Shown piece by piece: positions 2,815-39,123 of a DNA stretch of 64,000 nucleotides. The DNA lies in assembly GCA_965202915.1 (NCBI GenBank), contig OZ241847.1, positions 1,665,972-1,729,971 on the forward strand. Direction: 5' to 3'. The position numbers were made by a program, and so were the translations under genes. Origin of the DNA: Gammaproteobacteria bacterium. Lineage in GTDB: Bacteria > Pseudomonadota > Gammaproteobacteria > Eutrophobiales > Eutrophobiaceae. Under the pieces are notes generated by a model that was not told the origin of the DNA, searched no databases, and saw only the letters and a program-made list of their open reading frames with translations. Positions within the stretch are counted from its first letter, which is position 1. Each line of letters opens with the position of its first letter.

Positions 2815-4809
2815 GTGTTATCCAGGCGTGAACTTGCTAATGCGATACGAGTGTTGAGTATGGATGCGGTGCAGAATAGTAATTCCGGGCATCCGGGGGC
2901 GCCTATGGGTATGGCGGATTTTGCCGAGGTCCTGTGGAATGATTTTATTCGGCATAATCCGGGTAACCCGGATTGGTATAATCGCGACCGGTTTGTGATG
3001 TCGAATGGTCATGGTTCCATGTTGTTGTATTCCATCCTGCATCTGTGCGGTTATGATATTTCCATGGATGAGATAAAAAATTTCCGGCAACTGCATTCAA
3101 AGACGCCCGGCCATCCCGAATATGGCGATGCGCCCGGTGTGGAGGCGACCACCGGGCCGCTGGGACAGGGGCTGGCGAATGCGGTGGGTATGGCGGTCGC
3201 CGAGCGGGCGCTGGCGGTGCGTTTTAATCGCGATCGGTTCAATGTGATCGACCATCATACGTATTTTACGGTTGGCGACGGCTGCCTGATGGAGGGTATT
3301 TCGCATGAGGCCTGTTCATTGGCGGGCACGTTCAAACTCGGCAAATTGATCGGATTGTTTGACAGTAACCGGATCTCGATAGACGGCGACGTCAGGGGCT
3401 GGTTCACCGAGGACACGGCGCAGCGTTTTCAGGCGTATGGCTGGCAGGTGATCGATGCGGTGGACGGCCATGATCCGGAGCAGATTAAAACCGCTATCGC
3501 TGCGGCGATAGCGGAACGCGAGCGGCCCAGCCTGATCTGTTGCAATACCATTATTGGCCTGGGTTCGCCAAATAAACAGGATACCGCGGCCAGCCACGGC
3601 GCGCCTCTGGGTGAGGCCGAGGTGGAATTGGTGCGACGATCCCTGGGTTGGGATTTCGGGCCGTTTGAAATGCCCGCGGAATATTACCGGGGATGGGACG
3701 CCAGACAAAAGGGCGGACGGCTTGAGGACGATTGGAATGATTTATTCTGCGAGTATGAACGGGCACACCCGCGGGAGGCCGCCGAATTTCGGCGACGCAT
3801 GCGGGCAAAACTGCCGGCAGCCTGGCCGGAAGCCGCGAGTGCGTATATCGACCAGGTAAAACCTGAAAATATCGCCTCCCGCAAGGGTTCTCAAAATGCC
3901 TTAAATGCTTATGCCCCGGTGTTGCCTGAGCTGATCGGCGGTTCGGCGGATCTCACCGGTTCCAATCTGACCCGCGTCGACGGGTCCCGCACGCTGTCGG
4001 CGGATCGCCCCGACGGCAATTATATCTATTACGGCGTGCGGGAGTTTGCAATGGTGGCGATCAACAATGGCATCGCCCTGCACGGCGGCTTTATTCCCTA
4101 CGGCGGTACGTTTTTAATTTTTTCCGAATACGCCCGCAATGCGATCCGGATGGCGGCACTGATGGAACTGCGTACTATCTTTGTGCTGACCCATGATTCC
4201 ATCGGTCTCGGCGAGGACGGCCCCACCCATCAGGCGGTTGAACAGGCGGCGACGCTGCGCCTGATCCCCGGACTGTCGGTGTGGCGCCCCTGTGATGGTA
4301 CGGAAACCGCGGTGGCCTGGCGGCTGGCGATAGAACGCCTCAACGGCCCCACTGCGTTATTATTATCGCGCCAGACCCTGCCCCATATTCCCAGAAGCGG
4401 GCAACAGGTGGAGCGTATTCAATATGGTGCGTATGCCCTCACTCAGGTTGATATTGAGCCGGAATTAATTATTATTGCAACGGGTTCGGAAGTCGGTCTG
4501 GCCTATAATGTGGCCGTCAAACTCGGCGAGCAGGGTAAAAAGGTGCGGGCGGTGTCGATGCCGTCCACCGACGTGTTTGATCGACAACCGCGGGAGTACC
4601 GGGATTCGGTGTTAACGCCCGGCTGTAAAAAGCGTATTGCGATAGAAGCGGGGGTAAGCGATTACTGGAGAAAATACGTAGGCCTGGATGGGGCGGTGAT
4701 CGGGCTGGACGGCTTTGGTCGGTCGGCGCCGGGGGATGAGGTGTATCGCTATTTCGGCATTACCGAGGAATGCCTGACGGCGCTGGCGGTGGACGTTCTC
4801 GATTCATAA
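2815..4809 (+). CDS. tkt: Transketolase.
   Basis: 664 aa from a GTG start. The N-terminus [41 protein letters not shown] closely matches the E. coli TktA N-terminus. It is the first gene of a tkt-gap-pgk-fba cluster. Confidence 0.97.
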
Positions 4810-5847: not shown

Positions 5848-7062
5848 GTGTCTATACTGGTAAAAATTGCCGATCTGGATCTGAATAATAAAACGGTACT
5901 CATCCGGGAAGATTATAATGTGCCGCTCAGAGACGGTCGGGTTGCGGACGATACCCGCATCGTCGCCAGCCTGCCGACCCTGCGGGAGATCGGCGCCGCC
6001 GAAAACGTGAAGATCATTATCGTCGCCCACCTGGGGCGTCCGATAGAGGGTGAATATGATGCGGCCTTTTCATTGCGCCCGGTTGCGGAGTGTCTGTCGC
6101 AACACCTGGGCGAGCCCATCCCACTGCTTAAAAACTGGATCGATGGCGTTGATTTTGGCGGTCATAAGCTGGTGCTGTGTGAAAACGTCCGCTTTGAGCG
6201 GGGCGAGAAAGATAATGAAGATGCGCTGGCCCGAAAAATGGCGGCACTGTGCAATATTTACGTGAACGATGCGTTTGCCACCGCCCACCGGGTTCAGGCT
6301 TCCACTTACGGGGTCGCCAAATATACCGCGATGGCCTGCGCCGGACCGTTATTGATCTCCGAACTCAAGGCCCTGTCCAAGGGGATCAAAGACCCTGAGC
6401 GGCCGTTGGTGGCGGTCGTCGGCGGGGCCAAGATCTCCACCAAACTGGTATTGCTGGAATCACTGGTGAATATTGCCGATCAACTGATCGTAGGCGGGGG
6501 CATAGCCAATACCCTGCTCCGGGCCGCGGGGTATCATATCGGTCGCTCACTGTATGAAGCCGATCTGGTTGGGGTCGCGGAAAAGATACTGCAACGGGCT
6601 GAAACCAGGCAATGCGCGATACCCCTGCCGGTGGACGTGGTCTGTGCAAAGGAGTGCAATGAGTCCGCCGGCGCCGAGGTAAAGCCGATAGCGGCGGTCG
6701 CCGATGATGATTTGATCCTGGACGTGGGCCCTGAAACCACCGCCACCCTGGTTGATTCCCTGGCGGGCGCCAATACCATCGTATGGAACGGGCCCCTGGG
6801 GGCGTTTGAATTTGATCAATTCGGTCAGAGTACCGGCGCGATAGCCGCCGCGATAGCCGCCAGTCCGGCGTATTCGATAGCCGGCGGCGGGGACACGCTG
6901 GCGGCGGTGACAAAATACGGCGTCACCGCCGGGATTGATTATATCTCCACCGGCGGCGGGGCATTTCTGGAATTTCTGGCGGGACAAAAATTACCGGCGA
7001 TAGCGATGCTGGAGGAAGCCACCCGCGCCTGGGTGGCGATGGAGCACGGCCGGGAACTGTAA
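5848..7062 (+). CDS. pgk: Phosphoglycerate kinase.
   Basis: 404 aa from a GTG start, with Pgk hallmarks (REDYNVPL, AHRAxAS, GGGAKISTK). Confidence 0.95.
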   Translation: MSILVKIADLDLNNKTVLIREDYNVPLRDGRVADDTRIVASLPTLREIGAAENVKIIIVAHLGRPIEGEYDAAFSLRPVAECLSQHLGEPIPLLKNWIDGVDFGGHKLVLCENVRFERGEKDNEDALARKMAALCNIYVNDAFATAHRVQASTYGVAKYTAMACAGPLLISELKALSKGIKDPERPLVAVVGGAKISTKLVLLESLVNIADQLIVGGGIANTLLRAAGYHIGRSLYEADLVGVAEKILQRAETRQCAIPLPVDVVCAKECNESAGAEVKPIAAVADDDLILDVGPETTATLVDSLAGANTIVWNGPLGAFEFDQFGQSTGAIAAAIAASPAYSIAGGGDTLAAVTKYGVTAGIDYISTGGGAFLEFLAGQKLPAIAMLEEATRAWVAMEHGREL

Positions 7063-28862: not shown

Positions 28863-30749
28863 TTGGTTGCAAAATACAACGCCTCAGATATAGAGATATT
28901 GACCGGCCTGGAACCGGTCCGCAAACGCCCGGGCATGTACACCGATACAAGCTGTCCCAATCATCTGGTGCAGGAGCTTGTCGATAACAGCGTTGACGAG
29001 GCGATAGCCGGTCACGCCGCCAGCATAGAAGTCGTGTTGCATGCGGATGCGTCCATATCGGTCAGTGATGATGGCAGGGGTATGCCGGTGGACACCCATC
29101 CGGGCAAAAACATATCCGGGGTTGAAGTGATCCTGACTTGTCTGCATTCGGGGGGGAAATTCTCCGATAAAAATTACAAATTTTCCGGCGGCCTGCACGG
29201 CGTCGGGGTGTCGGTTGTGAACGCGCTGTCCAGGCATCTGGAAATATGGGTGCGGCGTGACGGCAAACAATACCATATGGCGTTTGCCGATGGTGACAAG
29301 CAATCCGAACTCGAGGTGATCGGCAGCCTGGGCAAAAAAAACACCGGCACCATGATCCGTTTCCGGCCTGATCCGCAATATTTCAGCTCGATACAGATCT
29401 CCCGCGGCCGCCTGAAACATCTGCTCAGAGCGAAGGCGATACTGGCGTCGGGATTGCTGGTGCGGCTGCGGGATGAAGCAAACGATGAAACCATGGAATG
29501 GTCTTATCAGGACGGGATCCGCAATTATTTGACCAATCAGTTGCAGGGCCGGGAACTATTGCCGCCTGAGCCGCTGATCGGTTCAATGGAAGGCAACAAA
29601 GAAGCCGTCGACTGGGCAATACACTGGTTGCCGGAAAAGGCGGATTTAATCACCGAAAGTTTTGTCAACCTGGTGCCAACCCCGCTGGGGGGCACGCATG
29701 TGAATGGCCTGAGGCAGGGATTATTGGAGGCAATTCGGGAGTTTTGCATCTCGCGCAATCTGTTGCCCAGGGGGATGAAGCTGGTTTCCGAAGACGTCTG
29801 GGAACGCTGCTGTTATCTGTTATCAGTCAAACTGGACGCGCCCCAGTTTGTCGGACAAACCAAGGAAAGATTATCGTCAAGAGAATGCCTGGCCTTTATA
29901 TCCGGCGTCGTTAAAGATACCACCGGCCACTGGTTGCATCGGCACGTGGAAATGGGCCAGAAAATTGCCGAACTGGTGATTGCCAGCGCCCAAACGCGGA
30001 TCAAAAACAGTAAAAAAATTGTCAGGAAAAAAGTATCCGGCGGCCCGGCGTTGCCGGGTAAACTCGCCGATTGCGCGATTCAGGATAATCAGGTTTCAGA
30101 ATTATTTTTGGTGGAGGGTGATTCCGCCGGCGGTTCGGCGAAACAGGCAAGAGAGCGCGAATACCAGGCGATCATGCCGTTACGCGGCAAAATACTGAAT
30201 TCATGGGAACTGGATTCCGCCGAGGTGCTGGCCTCAAAAGAGGTGCATGATATTGCGATTGCAATCGGCATCGAACCGGGGAGTGGCGATCTCAACGGCC
30301 TGCGCTACGGCAAGATATGTATTCTGGCCGACGCCGATTCAGACGGCGCCCATATCGCAACCTTATTATGCGCGTTATTTATGAAACATTTCCGGCCGCT
30401 GGTACAGGCGGGTCGGATCTACGTGGCGATGCCGCCCCTGTATCGCATAGACGCGGGCAGGGACGTGTATTACGCACTTGACGAGGCCGAAAGAGACGGC
30501 ACCCTGGATCAGATTTCGGCGGAAAAAAAGTCCGGCAAGGTCTCGGTACAGCGGTTCAAGGGCCTGGGGGAAATGAACCCGATGCAACTGCGTGAGACCA
30601 CCATGGCACCGGAAACCCGGCGGCTGATTCGCCTGGGCCTGGATGATATTCCCGGCACGGAACAGATGCTGGACATGTTGCTTGCCAAAAAAAGGGCGGG
30701 TGACCGCAGAGACTGGCTCGAATCCAAGGGAGACCTGGCAAAGATTTAA
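28863..30749 (+). CDS. parE: DNA topoisomerase IV subunit B.
   Basis: 628 aa (ParE length, not GyrB). GHKL ATPase and Toprim motifs are present, and it is followed by parC. Confidence 0.9.
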
Positions 30750-30763
30750 TCCGGGGATCAGAG

Positions 30764-33085
30764 TTGCCGTCATCTTCACAGGGGGGCAAACCGCATTCGG
30801 AGCAGATTCTAAACGCTATTGTTATGCCCAAATCACTGAACCTCGATCTCGAACAACCGGAAAAACAGCCCCTGCATGAATTTGCCGAGCAGGCTTATCT
30901 GGATTATTCCATGTACGTCATTCTGGACCGGGCGATCCCCGCCATCGGTGACGGTCTTAAACCGGTGCAGCGCCGGATCATTTATGCCATGTCCGAATTG
31001 GGCCTAAAGGCGACCGCAAAATATAAAAAATCCGCCCGTACCATCGGCGACGTGATCGGTAAATTTCATCCCCACGGCGATGCCGCCTGTTATGAATCGA
31101 TGGTATTAATGGCGCAGGATTTTTCCTGCCGTTATCCATTGATCGATGGTCAGGGTAATTGGGGGTCCATGGATGATCCCAGGTCCTTTGCCGCAATGCG
31201 TTATACCGAGTCAAAACTGACCGCCTATGCCGACCTGTTGATGAGCGAGGTCGGCCAGGGTACGGTCGACTGGATGCCGAATTTTGACGGCACCCTGCGG
31301 GAACCGCAATTACTGCCGGCGCGCTTGCCCAATATCCTGTTAAACGGATCGGCGGGCATTGCGGTGGGCATGGCCACCAATATTCCGCCGCATAACCTGC
31401 GCGAGGTCGCGGCCGCCTGCATCCATTTGCTGGACTCGCCCAGGGCCACGGTTGAAGAACTCTGTGAATATATCAAAGCCCCTGATTTTCCCACCAACGC
31501 CGAAATCATTACCCCGGTCGAGGAGCTTTTGGAGATCTATAAAAGCGGCGGCGGCTCAGTCAAAATGCGGGCCGTGTGGCAGCGGGAGGACGATAATATT
31601 ATTATCACCGCGTTGCCGTACCAGAGTGCCGGCGGTCGGGTGTTGGAACAGATAGCCGCGCAAATGCAGGCGAAAAAACTGCCGATGCTGGCCGATCTGC
31701 GAGATGAATCCGATCATGAGAACCCCACCCGGCTGGTGTTGATCCCCCGTTCCGGCCGATTCGACCCGGATAAATTGATGTCGCATCTGTTTGCCACCAC
31801 CGATCTGGAGAAAAGCAGCCGGGTTAATCTGAATATCATCGGCATCAATGGCCGGCCACGGGTAAAAGACCTGGCGACGATCCTCAGGGAATGGTTGCAA
31901 TATCGGCTGGCGACGGTCAGACGCCGCCTGCAGCATCGCCTGGACAGCATAGAGGCACAACTGCATATATTGGCGGGCCTGATGATCGCCTATCTGAACC
32001 TGGACGCGATCATTGCGATAATACGGGAACAGGAGAACCCGAAATTAATACTGCGGCGGCAGTTTGCACTCAGCGACCGGCAGGCCGAGGCGATACTGGA
32101 ATTAAAATTACGCAAACTGGCCCGATTGGAGGAGCTCAAACTCAAGGGCGAACTCGATAAACTTGAGGCCGAACGCCGCTCATTGCAGCAGATTCTCGGC
32201 TCCCGGCGGCGGCTCAATACATTGATCAAACGAGAGTTACAGGCGGACGCGAAAACCTTTGGCGATGACAGACTATCACCATTGAAGCAAAGACGGGAAG
32301 CCAGGGCCATCGACCCGGTAAGCCTGGTGCCCACCGAACCGATCACCGTTATTCTTTCAAAAAAAGGCTGGATCAGGGCCGCAAAGGGCCATAACATCGA
32401 TCCGCTGGCATTGAATTATCGCAGTGGTGACGGCCTCCGGCAGACCAGCGCCGGCAGAAGTAATCAAAACGTTTTATTGCTGGATTCCACCGGCCGCTGC
32501 TATTCCCTGCCGGCACATTCCCTGGCCTCCGCACGCGGTCTGGGTGAACCGGTTTCAGGACGGTTGATGCCGCCGGATGGCGCGGTATTTATCGGCGTGA
32601 TGACCGGCGATCCCGAGGCCATGTATTTGCTGGCCTCGGACGCCGGCTATGGTTTTGTTGCAACCCTGGCGGCGCTGCATACCAGGAATAAAAACGGCAA
32701 GGCGGTGATCACCGTGCCGGCAGGGGCAAAGCTGCTTTGCCCGGCGGGGGTTGACGACGTGGAAACCGGTCGAGTGGCGGTAGTCAGCTCAATCGGGCGG
32801 TTGCTGATTTTTCCAATCGCTGAATTACCGGTATTGTCGAAGGGCAAGGGCCTGAAGATCATTCAAATTCCGCCGCAAAAATTGAAGACAGGAGCGGAAC
32901 GGGTCGCCGCAATCACCGCCCTTGGCCACGCCGATGATCTGATCATTCACTCAGGCCAGAGATATATGACCCTCAGGCGGCGCGATCAGGAATACTATCT
33001 TGGCCGCCGCGGACGCCGAGGCAACACCCTGCCGCAGGGGTTTCGCAACGTCGCCCGGTTAAAGGCCGGCGGGGTCGATACGTGA
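30764..33085 (+). CDS. parC: DNA topoisomerase IV subunit A.
   Basis: 773 aa. The N-terminus [45 protein letters not shown] matches E. coli ParC. Confidence 0.9.
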
Positions 33086-33426
33086 ACGGCGGTTGCGTCG
33101 GAAGACGACCCTTGCCAGGCGGTGAATCTGCACATCCTATGACCACTTGCACACCGCCTATAACCACGAACATCGTAAAGCACGGCACAAAGGCGTATAT
33201 GAATGGAATGGCTCACACAAACGGCATTGAGAGTGTCTGGGCGATGCTGAAAAGAGGGATTTACGGCACCTATCACCATGTCAGCAAAAAGCACCTTAAC
33301 CGCTATATTGACGAGTTCATATTCCATTTGAATGAGGGAAACGTCAATGTCTTGCTGGTAAGCCGTATCGCTTCGTTGAGTTGTATGAGCGCAGGCATGC
33401 CCTATAAGCCACTGCTCAGGGGATGA
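33082..33426 (+). mobile_element. IS1595-family (ISXO2-like) transposase C-terminal remnant.
   Basis: ...HTNGIESVWAMLKRGIYGTYHHVSKKHLNRYIDEFIFHLNEGNV... matches the C-terminal DDE-region tail of IS1595-family transposases. The N-terminal ~250 aa are absent, and the fragment abuts the parC stop codon. Confidence 0.65.
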
Positions 33427-34343
33427 GCACAATGCCAAGTCTCAATGCTATTGCGGCTAGTTGTTCAAAGTCCATATTCCAGTCACGCATTATCACCGGC
33501 GATGTTCTGAAAACACTGAAAAACCAGCCCTTTAATCTGAAGTTTGATGTAGTAATTGCCGACCCGCCGTATAACATTGGCAAGGATTTTGGGAACAACA
33601 ACGATAGCCTACCTATTGACGATTATGTCGACTGGTGCAACCAATGGCTAGAGCAATGCTTTCGCCTGTTGACCGATAATGGATTGGTCTATGTGTACGG
33701 GTTCCACGAGGTTTTAGCGCGTATTGCAGTAAATTATCCGGTGGATGAGCAACGCTGGCTGGCGTGGCATTACACTAACAAAGCAGTGCCATCCTCAAAG
33801 TTCTGGCAACGATCCCACGAGGCAATCCTGTGCCTGTGGAAACCGGGGACCAAGCGGCCAATATTGGAAATTGACCAAATCCGAGAACCATACACACCCA
33901 ATTTCCTCAAATGTGCTGGCAGGGAGAGAAACGACACAAAGGGCAGGTACAGCAAAAAAGGAAAAAAGACAATTTACAACGACAACGGCGGCGCACTTCC
34001 TCGTGATGTAATTGATATACCTGCATTAGCTGGCGGTGCTGGTCGGGTGGAGCGGTGGTTTTCATGCCGGGAATGTGGCGGAGAGGTGAGGCCGCCTAGT
34101 GAATTGGCAAATCATGCTGGCCACAGCATACTCAAACATCCTACTCAAAAACCAATGGAGTTGACTAGGCGGCTGATATTGTCCCGAATCAACGGCCGGC
34201 AGGGCCGCACCTTGATACCCTTCACAGGGTCAGGCTCCGAGTGTGTAGTTGCAAAATCGCTTGGAGTCGAGTTTCTTGGCATTGAAATCAATCCTGAATA
34301 CGCTAAATTCGGGCGCAGTTGGTTAAAGCAATGTACCACTTGA
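33423..34343 (+). CDS. Site-specific DNA methyltransferase (N4/N6 amino-MTase, beta class).
   Basis: 306 aa. DPPY (VVIADPPYNIG) lies upstream of motif I (IPFTGSGSECVVA). The HPTQKP motif and a Cys-rich insert are present. Confidence 0.85.
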   Translation: MSTMPSLNAIAASCSKSIFQSRIITGDVLKTLKNQPFNLKFDVVIADPPYNIGKDFGNNNDSLPIDDYVDWCNQWLEQCFRLLTDNGLVYVYGFHEVLARIAVNYPVDEQRWLAWHYTNKAVPSSKFWQRSHEAILCLWKPGTKRPILEIDQIREPYTPNFLKCAGRERNDTKGRYSKKGKKTIYNDNGGALPRDVIDIPALAGGAGRVERWFSCRECGGEVRPPSELANHAGHSILKHPTQKPMELTRRLILSRINGRQGRTLIPFTGSGSECVVAKSLGVEFLGIEINPEYAKFGRSWLKQCTT

Positions 34344-34921
34344 CTCCGCGAATGACGCAACGGCTCAAAGCGGACCTGGCCAAATACCACGATCTGTTCA
34401 CAGGAAAACGATGCGAGAGTTGGGAATTGGAAGAGTTGATTGTTGCAGCAATCAAATCAGACACGCAGGCACAGCATCATGTTCGTTGGCAGGAAAAGGG
34501 GCATGATGATCTCGCCGATATTGTCGTGCGGACGAATGGATCACAGCATTCAATTCAAATCAAATCCGGGCAGATAAAAGCAGGCAAGTTGATATTGTCT
34601 GGCCACAGATTGGGCCGATTCAATGGCGTAATGGATGATATTGGCGCATACCTCAATACGCCGAGAGCAAATATCATGGCGGTTCCGCACAGATTGATAG
34701 ATGATAGCAAAGGGCGCCAGCATATTTATCGCGTATGCTATGTGGATATTAAGATAATGACTGGCCTTGAGACCAATAAATGGGAAAAGCGGGGCGCGCA
34801 ATATGTCCAAACAAACGCGGGAGGTGTAGAGTTCTCTTTGCGGCCGTCTATGAGTTGGCAAATCTGGTGGGCTATACCCGTAAGCCTAATTGAACAAACC
34901 GATGAGTTTGTTATCGGCTAG
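34319..34921 (+). CDS. Putative type II restriction endonuclease (PD-(D/E)XK-like), cognate to the upstream MTase.
   Basis: 200 aa overlapping the MTase by 25 bp. A candidate catalytic core HDDLADIVVR...SIQIKSG (D...D...QxK) is present. The assignment rests mainly on context. Confidence 0.45.
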   Translation: MVKAMYHLTPRMTQRLKADLAKYHDLFTGKRCESWELEELIVAAIKSDTQAQHHVRWQEKGHDDLADIVVRTNGSQHSIQIKSGQIKAGKLILSGHRLGRFNGVMDDIGAYLNTPRANIMAVPHRLIDDSKGRQHIYRVCYVDIKIMTGLETNKWEKRGAQYVQTNAGGVEFSLRPSMSWQIWWAIPVSLIEQTDEFVIG

Positions 34922-34991
34922 TTTGTTTATTTCAGGGTATAATTCCCTAATATAGCCTCTTTTCCAGCCCATCTATATTTTAAAGAAAAAA

Positions 34992-35554
34992 ATGACGACC
35001 TTCAGCACCAATCAATTCAAACCCGGCTTAAAGCTGATGATAGACGGCGAGCCGTGCTCGATTATTGAAACCGAATTTATTAAATCCGGCAAGAGACAGG
35101 CGTTCAACCGGGTGAAATTGCGCAACCTGAAAAATGGCCGGGTACTGGAAAAAACCTGGAATTCGGGTGACAGTGTCGCCGCCGCGGACGTGATGGAACT
35201 GGATATGCAGTATCGGACGGCGGTCTGTGGCATTTTATGGATCCAGATTCATATGAACAATACGCCGCCACCGCAACCGTGATGACCGACGTCAGTCCCT
35301 GGCTGAAAGGCGGCGAAGTATGCCTGGTCACACTCTGGAATGACTCACTTTTATCCGTGCTGCCGCCGAATTTCGTGATGCTGGCAATAGCCGAAACCGA
35401 TCCGGGGCTGGTGGGAGATACCGTATCATCCGGCACAAAGCCGGCAAAATTGGAAACCGGCGCGATGATAAAAGTGCCGCTGTTTATTGACACCGGTGAA
35501 ATTGTCAAAATAGACACCCGCACCGGTGAATACGTTGGCCGCAGCAAATCCTAG
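34992..35554 (+). CDS. efp: Elongation factor P. Its frame is interrupted by an apparent 1-nt deletion near 35211-35216 (ORFs 34992..35282 and 35237..35554).
   Basis: The N-terminal part [46 protein letters not shown]...MQY and, in the -1 frame, [16 protein letters not shown]...[27 protein letters not shown] align collinearly with E. coli EF-P. The junction is TAT-CGG versus an expected TATTCG. Confidence 0.85.
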
Positions 35555-36090: not shown

Positions 36091-39000
36091 GTGGCACCAC
36101 CACCGCCGGTGACCCCGGCAAACCCGTTACCCCCGGCGTCCGCGCTTATCGACCAACAATCGCAGGCCTTTGAGCCGCTTGCACTGCACGCCACCGCAAC
36201 CGGGCCACAGCGGCCCGAAGTCGCATTTCAGACCGGCGCTGTATCCCTGGTCTCTCTGAACCTGAACCAACAGCAGGGTATAGAGGCGCAAGACGCACAA
36301 ATACTGTATTACGTCGCCCTGTCGCCGGCCAATTTGACGACCCTGCTGGACAATCTGAGGGGAACCGACGCCGAGGCGGATCTTATAACCCGTGCGAATG
36401 CCTGGCTGAACCAGGACCTGGGCCTGAGCACCCTGCCCGATCTGAACAATGACAATATCCTGAACCAGGAGGATGCACGCATCCTGTACTATGCCTATCG
36501 GTTTGGCGATCTGCTGCGCGTCAGTCCCAGCCTGCGCGAGGCAATACTGGGCGATCTGACCGACGAAGACGATAGTGCCGCCAATCCGGATGACGTATAT
36601 CGGGAGATACTGGACCGGACTGGGTTATTCAGGCCGTCGGTGATCGACCTGACCAGCCTTGGTGAGGCCGACGGCTTTATTATCCAGGGCGATGCGGCCA
36701 GGGACGGGGCGGGCGTGAGCGTATCCACTGTCGGCGACGTCAACGGCGACGGCTATGCCGATGTAATCGTCGGGGCGCGCGGTGGCGACGACGGTGGCAG
36801 GAATGCCGGCGAGGCCTACGTGGTATTTGGCAGGGCGGGCGCCTTTGGCAGCCTGGACGGCACCAACCGCCGGGTGATCGACCTGACCAGCCTTAGCGAG
36901 GCGGACGGTTTTATCATCCAGGGCTTGGGAGGCGACCAGGTGGGCGAGGGCATATCCGGCGCCGGCGACGTCAACGGCGACGGCTATGCCGACCTGATTG
37001 TTGGGGCGCACCTGGGTGACGACGGTGGCAGGAATGCCGGCGAGGCCTACGTGGTGTTTGGTAAGGCGGGCTTCTTTGGCAGCCTGGACGGCACCGACCG
37101 CCGGGTGATCGACCTGACCAGCCTTAGCGAGACGGACGGCTTTATTATCCAGGGCGACGCGGTCGGGGACCGTGCAGGCGAGCGCGTATCCGGCGCCGGG
37201 GACGTGAATGGCGACGGCTTTGCCGATCTGATCGTCGGGGCGCAGTCGGCCAACGACGGTGGTACCGATGCCGGCGAGGCCTACGTGGTGTTCGGCAGGG
37301 CGGGCCCCTTTGGCAGCTTGGACGGCACCAGCCGCCGGGTGATCGACCTGACCCGCCTTAGCGAGACGGACGGCTTTATTATCCAGGGCGACGCGGTCGG
37401 GGACCGTGCGGGCTGGAGCGTATCCGGCGCCGGGGACGTGAACGGTGACGGCTATGCCGACCTGATCGTCGGGGCGCTCTATGGCGACGACGGCGGGGAA
37501 AATGCCGGCGAGGCCTATGTCGTGTTCGGCAGAGCATCCGGCTTTGGCAGTGACGTCACCACCACAGTGGATGGGGAAGGCAGCTTCATCCGCCGGGTGA
37601 TCGACCTGACTGGTCTGAGCGAAGCCGATGGCTTTATCATCCAGGGCGATGAGGCCGGTGCCTATGCGGGCAATAGAGTTGGTGATACTGCGGGCTTTAG
37701 CGTATCCGGCGCCGGGGACGTGAACGGCGACGGCTATGCCGACCTGATTGTCGGGGCACGCCGGGGTGACGACGGTGACGACGTTGACGTCAATGCCGGC
37801 GAGGCCTACGTGGTGTTAGGCAAGGCGGGCGGCTTTGGTATTGACGTCACCACCACAGTTGAGAGGGAAGGCAGCTTCACCCGCCGGGTGATCGACCTGA
37901 CGAGCCTGGCCGCGGAGGACGGCTTTATCATCCAGGGCGATATGGCTGGGGACAATGCGGGCTTTAGCGTATCCACTGCCGGGGACTTCAACGGCGACGG
38001 CTTTGCCGACCTGATCGTCGGGGCACTTGGGGGCGACGACGGTGGGGAAAATGCCGGCGAGGCCTACGTGGTGTTCGGCAAGGCGGGCGGTTTTGGTATT
38101 GACGTCACCACCACAGTTGAGGGGGAAGGCAGCTTCACCCGCCGGGTGGTCGACCTGGATGGCCTGGTTGCAACGGACGGCTTTATTATCCAGGGTGATG
38201 CGCCTGGCGACTATGCGGGCTATAGCGTATCCGCTGCCGGCGATATAAACGGCGACGGCTATGCCGACCTGATCGTCGGAGCAATCAGGGGCGACGACGG
38301 TGACGACAGTGACATCAATGCCGGCGAGGCCTACGTGCTGTTCGGCGGCCTGGCCGCCGGCCTAAGTTCCGAGGCCACCGTATTACTCGGCACCGGCGGC
38401 AACGACGACCTCAACGTCGACGGCCGTGCCACGGTTGTACTCGCCGGCGCCGGCGATGACGTGCTGACCGTGGACGGCTTCACCAATACCGATCTGCTCA
38501 AATTCGATGGCGGCACCGGCACCGATACCCTGCGCTTCGCCAACCCCGACGCAGACACCGGCCTGAGCCTGGATTTAAGCACCCTCGCCGACACCCGCCT
38601 GAGCAGCATAGAGCGCATAGACCTCAGTGGCAGCGGCGACAATAGGCTAACCCTGATCCGTCTGGACCTGTTGAACCTGTCCGAGGCGCGCACTAATGGC
38701 CGCGCCGAGCTACGGGTCGACGGCAACGCCGGCGACCGCGTCAGCGCCACCGATACCGGCTGGACGCAGCAGGCTGATATCATCACCGACGACGGCATGT
38801 ACAGGGTCTTTGACAACGGCAATGCCCGCCTGCTGGTCAATATGGAGGTGGCGCTGGGCGACAATTTAATGGCGGCCAGCATGGCCAGCCGGGATGAGCT
38901 CCTGCAAAGCTGTTGCGGCACGCAGACCGTCGATATCCGCGCATTGCTGCAGGCCCTGCCGCCGCCGGACGAAGAGCAACAGCGCAGGATCATGGAAGAT

Positions 39001-39123
39001 GAATTGGCGATGTTGGGGCCGTCACCGGAGGCAAAGGCGGCGATGATGCCTGATGAACCCACGGCGGCACCGGAGACCGACCTGTTCGACCTGCCGCCGC
39101 TCATCCCGGATGATGGCATGTAG
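36091..39123 (+). CDS. Large FG-GAP (integrin-alpha-like beta-propeller) repeat protein with an N-terminal Pro-rich linker plus a dockerin-like module and a C-terminal Gly/Asp-rich region loosely reminiscent of RTX repeats. It is probably the distal part of the phase-variable gene starting at 35742.
   Basis: About 10 tandem ~72-aa repeats (RRVIDLTSLSEADGFIIQGD...GDVNGDGYADLIVGA...DGG.NAGEAYVVFG.AG.FG) match the FG-GAP consensus. The N-terminus carries a dockerin-like pair (LNLNQQQGIEAQDAQILYY..., DLNNDNILNQEDARILYYAYRF). The C-terminus has GGNDDLNVDG...AGAGDDVLTVDG...FDGGTGTDTLRF. Confidence 0.8.
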   Translation: MAPPPPVTPANPLPPASALIDQQSQAFEPLALHATATGPQRPEVAFQTGAVSLVSLNLNQQQGIEAQDAQILYYVALSPANLTTLLDNLRGTDAEADLITRANAWLNQDLGLSTLPDLNNDNILNQEDARILYYAYRFGDLLRVSPSLREAILGDLTDEDDSAANPDDVYREILDRTGLFRPSVIDLTSLGEADGFIIQGDAARDGAGVSVSTVGDVNGDGYADVIVGARGGDDGGRNAGEAYVVFGRAGAFGSLDGTNRRVIDLTSLSEADGFIIQGLGGDQVGEGISGAGDVNGDGYADLIVGAHLGDDGGRNAGEAYVVFGKAGFFGSLDGTDRRVIDLTSLSETDGFIIQGDAVGDRAGERVSGAGDVNGDGFADLIVGAQSANDGGTDAGEAYVVFGRAGPFGSLDGTSRRVIDLTRLSETDGFIIQGDAVGDRAGWSVSGAGDVNGDGYADLIVGALYGDDGGENAGEAYVVFGRASGFGSDVTTTVDGEGSFIRRVIDLTGLSEADGFIIQGDEAGAYAGNRVGDTAGFSVSGAGDVNGDGYADLIVGARRGDDGDDVDVNAGEAYVVLGKAGGFGIDVTTTVEREGSFTRRVIDLTSLAAEDGFIIQGDMAGDNAGFSVSTAGDFNGDGFADLIVGALGGDDGGENAGEAYVVFGKAGGFGIDVTTTVEGEGSFTRRVVDLDGLVATDGFIIQGDAPGDYAGYSVSAAGDINGDGYADLIVGAIRGDDGDDSDINAGEAYVLFGGLAAGLSSEATVLLGTGGNDDLNVDGRATVVLAGAGDDVLTVDGFTNTDLLKFDGGTGTDTLRFANPDADTGLSLDLSTLADTRLSSIERIDLSGSGDNRLTLIRLDLLNLSEARTNGRAELRVDGNAGDRVSATDTGWTQQADIITDDGMYRVFDNGNARLLVNMEVALGDNLMAASMASRDELLQSCCGTQTVDIRALLQALPPPDEEQQRRIMEDELAMLGPSPEAKAAMMPDEPTAAPETDLFDLPPLIPDDGM

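Follow-up and report, generated by a model that had tools for sequence, protein, structure and literature searches.

Transporter insertion sequences (tIS) are single-transposase elements whose inverted repeats enclose the transposase together with passenger genes, and within the IS1595 family of insertion sequences (IS) they are known, as tIS or small mobilisable transposons, from tISCpe8 (Clostridium perfringens) and MTnSag1 (Streptococcus agalactiae), with 25-bp repeats, 8-bp direct repeats and passenger genes (PMC5704250). Here we describe an element of this architecture from a gammaproteobacterium, situated between the core genes parC and efp in a 64,000-nucleotide stretch of contig OZ241847.1 (assembly GCA_965202915.1, positions 1,665,972 to 1,729,971 of the forward strand; hereafter the window, to whose own numbering all coordinates refer unless another locus is named). 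Very probably, the locus is the immobilised remnant of a 2.46-kb IS1595-family tIS carrying a two-gene type II restriction-modification (R-M) system, namely a DNA methyltransferase (M) and a predicted endonuclease (R). It shares with tISCpe8 and MTnSag1 the single IS1595-family DDE transposase (tnp), repeats of about 25 bp (23-26 bp in the elements described here), 8-bp duplications and internal passengers. The hosts differ from those of the two described elements, being here marine symbionts of many phyla, and so does the cargo. MTnSag1 brings a lincosamide resistance gene. Likewise, tISCpe8 is described as a lincomycin resistance element (PMC5704250), whereas here a full type II R-M pair makes up the cargo.

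In its horizontal mobility, its insertion footprints and the earlier loss of R, the system resembles mobile R-M units generally; what sets it apart is the vehicle, which is neither a composite transposon nor a prophage nor an insertion of unexplained kind, and instead a single-transposase tIS with inverted repeats and 8-bp duplications of its own. Although the mobility of R-M systems is known, their vehicle is rarely defined. Kobayashi and co-workers have reportedly treated R-M systems as selfish mobile elements with links to IS and transposons.

The element, its termini and its relatives

An earlier reading of the window, made from its letters (the sequence-only reading), had placed three open reading frames (ORFs) between parC and efp, the first of them abutting the parC stop codon; all three are present, and parC ends at 33085. 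The locus comprises the following features:

28863-30749, plus strand: parE (from the ORF list)
30764-33085, plus strand: parC (topoisomerase IV subunit A), the left core flank of the insertion (ORF with 100% identity to P0121; PF00521/PF03989)
33086-33128, no strand: native parC-efp spacer, preserved up to the deletion junction (alignment with the strain-variant contigs L082 and L083 as far as 33128)
33128-33129, no strand: deletion junction, with 654 bp lost and a 1-nt microhomology (C) (comparison with L001)
33129-33426, plus strand: 3' remnant of an IS1595-family DDE transposase pseudogene (PF12762, NF033547, alignment to L052)
33423-34343, plus strand: beta-class exocyclic-amino DNA methyltransferase (M), 306 aa (PF01555, PADLOC MTase_II)
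34331-34921, plus strand: R (196 aa), predicted to be a type II restriction endonuclease from a PD-(D/E)XK family not classified before (conservation and structural model)
34899-34917, plus strand: terminator-like hairpin with a T-run, from the 3' end of R into the right repeat (consensus scan, weak evidence)
34922-34947, minus strand: inverted repeat at the right terminus (IRR) of the IS1595-family element (L001 and relatives)
34948-34955, no strand: right copy of the 8-bp target-site duplication, TAATATAG (comparison with L001)
34992-35554, plus strand: efp (elongation factor P), the right core flank, frameshifted (domains split over two ORFs)

M and R are internal passengers of an IS1595-family tIS, and not neighbours of an IS, because the right repeat and one copy of the 8-bp duplication lie beyond R. 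The repeat follows the R stop codon directly, reads GGGAATTATACCCTGAAATAAACAAA on the minus strand and occurs once in the window, which retains the right repeat only. The same right repeat, shared with a complete allele from a near-identical strain (L001), matches the left repeat of that allele (GGGAATGATTTACTTAAATAAACAAA) at 21 of 26 positions. Termini of the GGGAATTATATAC type enclose tnp-M-R in six further loci (L052, L034, L055, L071, L066 and L067). Inverted-repeat pairs around the three genes are found at 4055-4077 with 6604-6626 in L052 (23-nt arms) and at 2563-2588 with 5153-5178 in L066 (26-nt arms), as well as in L034, L055 and L067, while in L071 all 20 of the 20 positions searched match. 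These complete elements span 2.35-2.9 kb and reside in distant genomes, mostly those of sponge symbionts (habitat judged from record titles).

Perfect 8-bp duplications bracket the element in L052 (AAAAAAGA), L034 (CTTAAAAA), L055 (CAATTTTA), L067 (ATTTAATT) and L071 (TAAGAAAA); the two copies in L001 (TAATATCG just before the left repeat, TAATATAG on the right) agree at 7 of 8 positions, and at the element ends of L066 no 8-bp target duplication was found. The passenger genes occupy the same place, between tnp and IRR, in the window, L001, L052, L034, L055, L066 and L067. Nucleotide homology between the elements of different hosts (88.5% identity for L034/L055, 90% for L066/L067) ends at the repeats, and the flanks of the M-R elements differ from genome to genome. 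Among 80 M-R loci, the IRR motif lies no more than 95 nt after R in 9, against about 0.4 expected by chance (0.005 per 95 nt).

The transposase itself has nearly vanished from the window. The ORF at 33082-33426 (114 aa) is chimeric: its GTG start codon overlaps the stop of parC, and of the IS1595 DDE domain it retains no more than the last third (PF12762 positions 98-153/153, E 9e-17). The sequence-only reading had likewise recognised just the C-terminal ~90 aa of an IS1595-family transposase. As expected of a fragment, the NF033547 score (56 bits) stays under the 75-bit cutoff. This remnant aligns to residues 240-323 of the 323-aa transposase of L052 with 52% identity. Full transposases (305-323 aa, with a zinc ribbon and DDE_Tnp_IS1595) stand directly 5' of M in L046, L052 and L066 and pass the NF033547 cutoff with 167-197 bits, and partial ones precede M in eight or nine further loci, giving 11-12 loci with tnp directly 5' of M. 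In at least seven phyla, M-R is found together with traces of an IS. The view that the R-M genes were hitch-hiking with an IS was thus right about an IS-linked arrival and has to be amended as to position, the genes being cargo inside a tIS and not companions beside an IS.

Alleles at the parC-efp site

A 2563-bp contig (L001, run SRR23871863) carries a complete 2461-bp element at the same parC-efp site. Its bases 674-2563 equal window positions 33128-35017 with 100% identity over 1890 bp, while its bases 20-673 (654 bp) are missing from the window; they comprise a 13-nt stretch of flank with the left duplication copy, TAATATCG, at its end, followed by the left repeat and approximately the first two-thirds of tnp. 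Since bases 1-19 of L001 equal window positions 33110-33128, and contig L083 joins the start of L001 to parC, the window is the full-length allele minus 654 bp. Together with the right repeat after R, this bears out the earlier proposal that the R-M genes arrived with an IS that was later deleted. The L001 transposase (122-972) is itself dead: four or more in-frame stops and one or more frameshifts interrupt it, and its central DDE region is unrecognisable. M and R are nonetheless intact and identical to those of the window.

In a third allele, L082, whose ParC is 100% identical and whose nucleotide identity is 99.67%, the left 400 bases of L001 persist. Bases 401-2490 are gone, and with them the remainder of tnp, both M and R, and the greater part of the right repeat. 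In two relatives whose ParC is 76% identical (L084, L085), parE-parC-efp is contiguous, with a 14-nt parC-efp spacer and no insertion, and these represent the empty site; the earlier description of the locus as an islet in a conserved core neighbourhood holds accordingly. The empty site was found through ParC homologues, an exact search of JGI metagenomes for its predicted sequence having returned no match.

The alleles show the course of events at this site. The element transposed into the parC-efp spacer, duplicating the 8 bp TAATATNG; its transposase decayed through stops and frameshifts, as seen in L001; and in the strain of the window the 654-bp deletion then cost the element its left repeat and some two-thirds of tnp, thereby fixing M, R and the right repeat in place. 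Spread among hosts, as far as the structure of the elements suggests, would proceed by transposition and horizontal transfer.

The three genes are co-oriented with overlapping stop and start codons: the tnp TGA overlaps the M ATG (ATGA), and the overlap between M and R amounts to 13 nt. They are thus probably transcribed as a single operon, in which M would be translated before R. At present, M and R may be expressed by read-through from parE-parC, along a chain of overlapping ORFs. Counts in a promoter and terminator scan of the locus did not exceed the shuffled expectation, and the hairpin at 34899-34917 is a weak hint only. The G+C content falls from approximately 0.55-0.57 in parC to 0.44-0.52 over 33200-35000.

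On the right flank, efp is read in two frames (34992-35282 and 35237-35554; 96 aa and 105 aa), with a break between 35214 and 35215, where 7 nt (TCTATCA) are missing relative to the sister-strain contig L082 and the relative L084. The insertion point lies 44 bp 5' of the efp start; because the element sits where relatives have the 14-nt parC-efp spacer, normal co-transcription of efp may have been lost. The efp gene of L082 shows a change of its own: the 9-mer CAAACCCGG is absent from codons 9-11 (an in-frame loss of K-P-G, leaving 186 aa) and is found instead inside the right-repeat remnant at 6747-6759 of that contig (AATT[CAAACCCGG]CCC), a shift that reflects either a microhomology-mediated rearrangement or a polishing artefact. 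Just 3' of efp, the window encodes a 1010-aa FG-GAP repeat protein (36091-39123). The DNA of this region is strongly repetitive, with self-alignments of 73-82% identity in several registers, and has a G+C content (0.62-0.68) well above that of the neighbouring genes.

The methyltransferase, the predicted endonuclease and their linkage

M belongs to the N6/N4 methyltransferases (PF01555, E 5e-32, cutoff 26.7 bits; PADLOC MTase_II, E 7e-39) and shows the beta-class order of motifs (DPPY at residues ~47-50, FTGSGS near the C-terminus), in keeping with the class assigned to it by the sequence-only reading. Its closest solved relatives are adenine methyltransferases (M.BceJIV, 8URK; M.MboIIA; CcrM; M.RsrI; DpnA), and judged from this similarity M is probably an N6-adenine methyltransferase. 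With M.BceJIV (8URK/9C3U), YhdJ-type PRK11524, M.MboIIA, CcrM and M.RsrI it shares the PF01555 fold, DPPY and FxGxG, and the beta order; M.BceJIV is an orphan regulator, whereas M is tightly linked to a nuclease gene. A transfer of specificity from M.BceJIV (GTWWAC) or YhdJ was rejected, as the resemblance does not extend beyond the catalytic motifs and all scores fall far short of equivalog cutoffs (111.7 bits for PRK11524, against a cutoff of 292 bits). Palindrome counts in 545 kb of carrier flanks revealed only generic avoidance (CTAG, GATC, GGCC, CATATG), which was equal in loci with a decayed R.

The longest ORF of R (34319-34921, 200 aa, TTG start) overlaps M by 25 bp, the figure given by the sequence-only reading, which holds if that start is used. 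Members of the R family measure about 196 aa, and as most homologues begin with a conserved N-terminal MYxLTPRM, the TTG start is unlikely and the likely start is the ATG at 34331, which yields 196 aa and a 13-bp overlap. A word-indexed search gave 233 matches to R, and an exhaustive profile search 249 cluster representatives at E <= 1e-3 (128 at E <= 1e-10). An alignment of 34 sequences has 38 invariant columns, among them E38, E39, H62, D63, D67, Q80 and K82, and E38/E39, D67, Q80 and K82 are all kept in 55 of the 63 full-length copies. Position 80 is occupied by Q in 59 of these, by N in two, and by E and H in one each; variation of this kind is seen at the '(D/E)' position of known enzymes, which supports a PD-(D/E)XK reading.

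The AlphaFold2 model of R, built on the family alignment, is of high confidence (mean predicted local distance difference test, pLDDT, 91.6; predicted template modelling score, pTM, 0.87) and conforms to the alpha-beta-beta-beta-alpha-beta core fold of the PD-(D/E)XK superfamily. E38/E39 lie in a helix (34-47), D67 at the start of strand 2 (68-72), and Q80-x-K82 at the end of strand 3 (75-82), an arrangement of E...D...QxK that agrees with the active site of ThaI (Glu54 in mid-helix, Asp82, Ser91-x-Lys93; PMC3025569). The catalytic residues of R were assigned by position and conservation only, with no residue-level superposition. R is therefore predicted to be a PD-(D/E)XK endonuclease with a ThaI/EcoRV-like fold and an active site formed by E38/E39, D67 and Q80-x-K82; the D...D...QxK core surmised earlier finds support in the invariance of D63, D67, Q80 and K82 across the 34 sequences and in the confident model.

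No match to R was obtained in Pfam, NCBIfam, PADLOC or the PDB (phmmer and profile search), and a missing match to a curated family is common among restriction enzymes. Weak matches to SIR2_2 and a glucuronidase were dismissed as noise. A 520-aa apparent M-R fusion (P0241) proved to be a frameshifted M reading through into R, and three tandem-repeat proteins of up to 4589 aa (P0261, P0335, P0364) were rejected as relatives, their scores being the sum of 7-37 weak repeat matches to profile residues 36-72. R.ThaI (PDB 3NDH, a CG/CG blunt cutter of 208 aa) shares 10% identity with R, i.e. no relationship at the sequence level, and is partnered by an N4-cytosine methyltransferase, whereas M resembles N6-adenine enzymes. 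The HinP1I/MspI group differs in its larger size (~247-262 aa) and its C5-cytosine methyltransferase partners, and has no sequence similarity to R.

Linkage was compared over the 80 loci, drawn from species-representative genomes. An M match (46-87% identity) lies immediately 5' of R on the same strand in 74 of them. Both genes are intact in 59 loci; M is intact and R decayed in 9; R is decayed and M absent in 5; both are decayed in 3; and the four further loci combine a full-length R with a partial M (one of them at a contig edge). None of the 63 full-length R copies is without an adjacent M match. Such asymmetric decay, in which R is lost beside an intact M and no full-length R stands without an M match, is expected if the endonuclease is toxic without its methylase. 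Two of the three loci with a damaged M and a full-length R carry catalytic substitutions (D67N in L063, Q80H in L057), which fit an inactivation of R after the loss of protection.

M would methylate a short site, probably at adenine N6, and R would cut unmethylated copies of it in incoming DNA. By this route we infer a defence activity for the pair, which may in addition stabilise the element by post-segregational killing.

Identities of M and R to the window genes are loosely correlated (r = 0.48, 58 intact pairs), and in a Dehalococcoidia locus (L006) M is 87% and R only 64.5% identical; R may evolve faster, or M and R may have been reshuffled between elements. Two genomes hold two M-R copies each (L011/L068 on OY729418.1, L057/L069 on OZ251482.1), with one R decayed in each pair; the copies of L011/L068 are only ~71-84% identical and are thus not recent duplicates. 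In Ca. Porisulfidus (L031, 6709-7287) the intact R is followed by three tandem partial copies of its 3' end (residues ~108-192).

By record titles, the carriers include Poribacteria (19 loci), Ca. Spongiihabitans, Poriferihabitaceae, Porisulfidus, Poriferisocius and Tethybacter, together with many Dehalococcoidia, Alpha- and Gammaproteobacteria, Bacteroidota, Rhodothermales, Spirochaetota, Thermodesulfobacteriota, Binatia, Acidobacteriota, Verrucomicrobiota, SAR324 and Bdellovibrionales. Decayed copies were found in Rickettsiales and in a tardigrade symbiont, and decayed, unannotated copies of R lie in a phytoplasma chromosome (L081) and on a Spiroplasma citri plasmid (CP047444.1, 21037-21560; L086). 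The R family thus reaches insect- and plant-associated Mollicutes besides marine symbionts. As vehicles, phages were rejected on finding no R relative in 2.9 million viral contigs, and plasmids because the Spiroplasma citri copy, itself decayed, is the only one.

Competing explanations and implications

Several observations weigh against the account of the locus as a former tIS with a working R-M cargo. Approximately 64 of the 80 M-R loci have no detectable IS trace, and there the pair either travels by another route or has persisted beyond the loss of its carrier. L082 lost M and R cleanly and its lineage survived; since this sister allele was viable, either addiction is weak or R was already inactive. 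The nuclease assignment of R rests on a predicted structure, the identity to ThaI is 10%, and a Foldseek search with the model gave no PDB match at E <= 0.001 (the most probable matches being Hjc and EcoRV). N4-cytosine specificity of M is possible, the partner of ThaI being an N4 methyltransferase (PMC3025569). The region in which a promoter of the element itself would be expected is deleted in the window, and no convincing promoter was found. Lastly, in L017 R retains every catalytic residue although M appears to be frameshifted. As to the two outcomes that the sequence-only reading had named as contrary to itself (relatives carrying the genes without IS traces; a non-nuclease homologue of the 200-aa protein), neither, in our judgement, came about.

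The mere transposase fragment in the window, and the many trace-less loci, could suggest an ordinary IS1595 element that came by chance to lie beside a resident R-M cassette. We regard this explanation as effectively refuted: the right repeat is found 3' of R and not between tnp and M, the 8-bp duplications bracket the whole of tnp-M-R (in five relatives, and at 7 of 8 positions in L001), 11-12 loci of several phyla have tnp directly 5' of M, homology between hosts does not extend past the inverted repeats, and the empty site lacks both the IS and M-R. A different doubt concerns the assembly, in which the 654-bp deletion and the 7-nt efp deletion could be consensus artefacts hiding a genome as complete as L001. 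L083 and L001 (99.98-100% identical to the window) do join parC to the full element, and the fact that the contig breaks just here suggests that the SRR23871863 assembly graph branches. The clean junction with its 1-nt microhomology, the position of both deletions outside homopolymers and the different structural allele at the same site in L082, by which the locus is truly polymorphic, make such an artefact quite improbable, and it would alter only the state of decay and not the identity of the element.

The tIS reading leaves room for different roles of its cargo. R might have the PD-(D/E)XK fold and yet be no classical restriction enzyme (a nicking, repair or methyl-directed nuclease, or a dead DNA-binding partner), with M serving as an orphan or epigenetic methyltransferase, as is the case for its closest solved relative, M.BceJIV; the lack of a curated family match and the tolerance of M-R loss in L082 would agree with this. 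We hold it to be unlikely, as it sits poorly with the strict same-strand order of M then R (74 of 80 loci), with an asymmetric decay in which 9 loci have R decayed and M intact and no full-length R lacks an M match, and with the catalytic-site substitutions where M is damaged; moreover, a methyl-directed nuclease beside a methylase of the same specificity would be lethal. Somewhat better placed, though still the less favoured view, is that M-R acts mainly as an addiction or stabilisation module of the transposon, with little phage defence. This overlaps with the mechanism proposed above and differs from it in the beneficiary. The position of M-R inside a mobile element, its operon-like arrangement with the transposase, the wide cross-phylum spread and the retention of M-R after the death of the transposase all speak for it, while the persistence of L082 after losing M-R and the survival of many decayed R copies with M speak against; the absence of R relatives from the viral contigs neither supports nor excludes defence.

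Type II R-M systems, PD-(D/E)XK endonucleases without sequence relatives and IS1595-family tIS are all known kinds. What appears to be new is their combination, i.e. R-M as the sole cargo of a tIS, a decay series of three alleles, a cross-phylum spread among holobionts and an unclassified endonuclease family. No description of an R-M-carrying IS1595-family tIS was found in the open-access literature searched, a search that did not cover ISfinder, TnCentral or REBASE. We put forward only tentatively that a complete type II R-M system may here be recognised for the first time as passenger of a single-transposase IS1595-family tIS, that the unit would have spread, by transposition together with horizontal transfer, over at least 10 phylum-level groups of sponge-associated and other host-associated bacteria, and that R would found an unclassified Q-x-K family of PD-(D/E)XK enzymes, possibly with a new specificity.

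The locus is a well-resolved example that overturns no current understanding and introduces no new principle. Inverted repeats, 8-bp duplications and the empty site set the limits of the moving unit to the base, and this unit amounts to a minimal transposon with R-M as its only cargo. Approximately 250 'hypothetical proteins' become annotatable as candidate restriction endonucleases, whose specificity may be of interest for enzyme discovery. The three alleles, found in near-identical strains, offer a snapshot of domestication and loss, from the full element, through one with the transposase end deleted and R-M kept, to one from which R-M has been deleted. An enrichment of R-M systems and transposases has been reported for sponge microbiomes (PMC11410982, PMC5099237), and the recurrence of the element in symbionts of many phyla that share the sponge habitat suggests a mechanism behind this enrichment. 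If the tentative wider reading is true, IS1595-family tIS would provide a concrete vehicle for this long-noted association.

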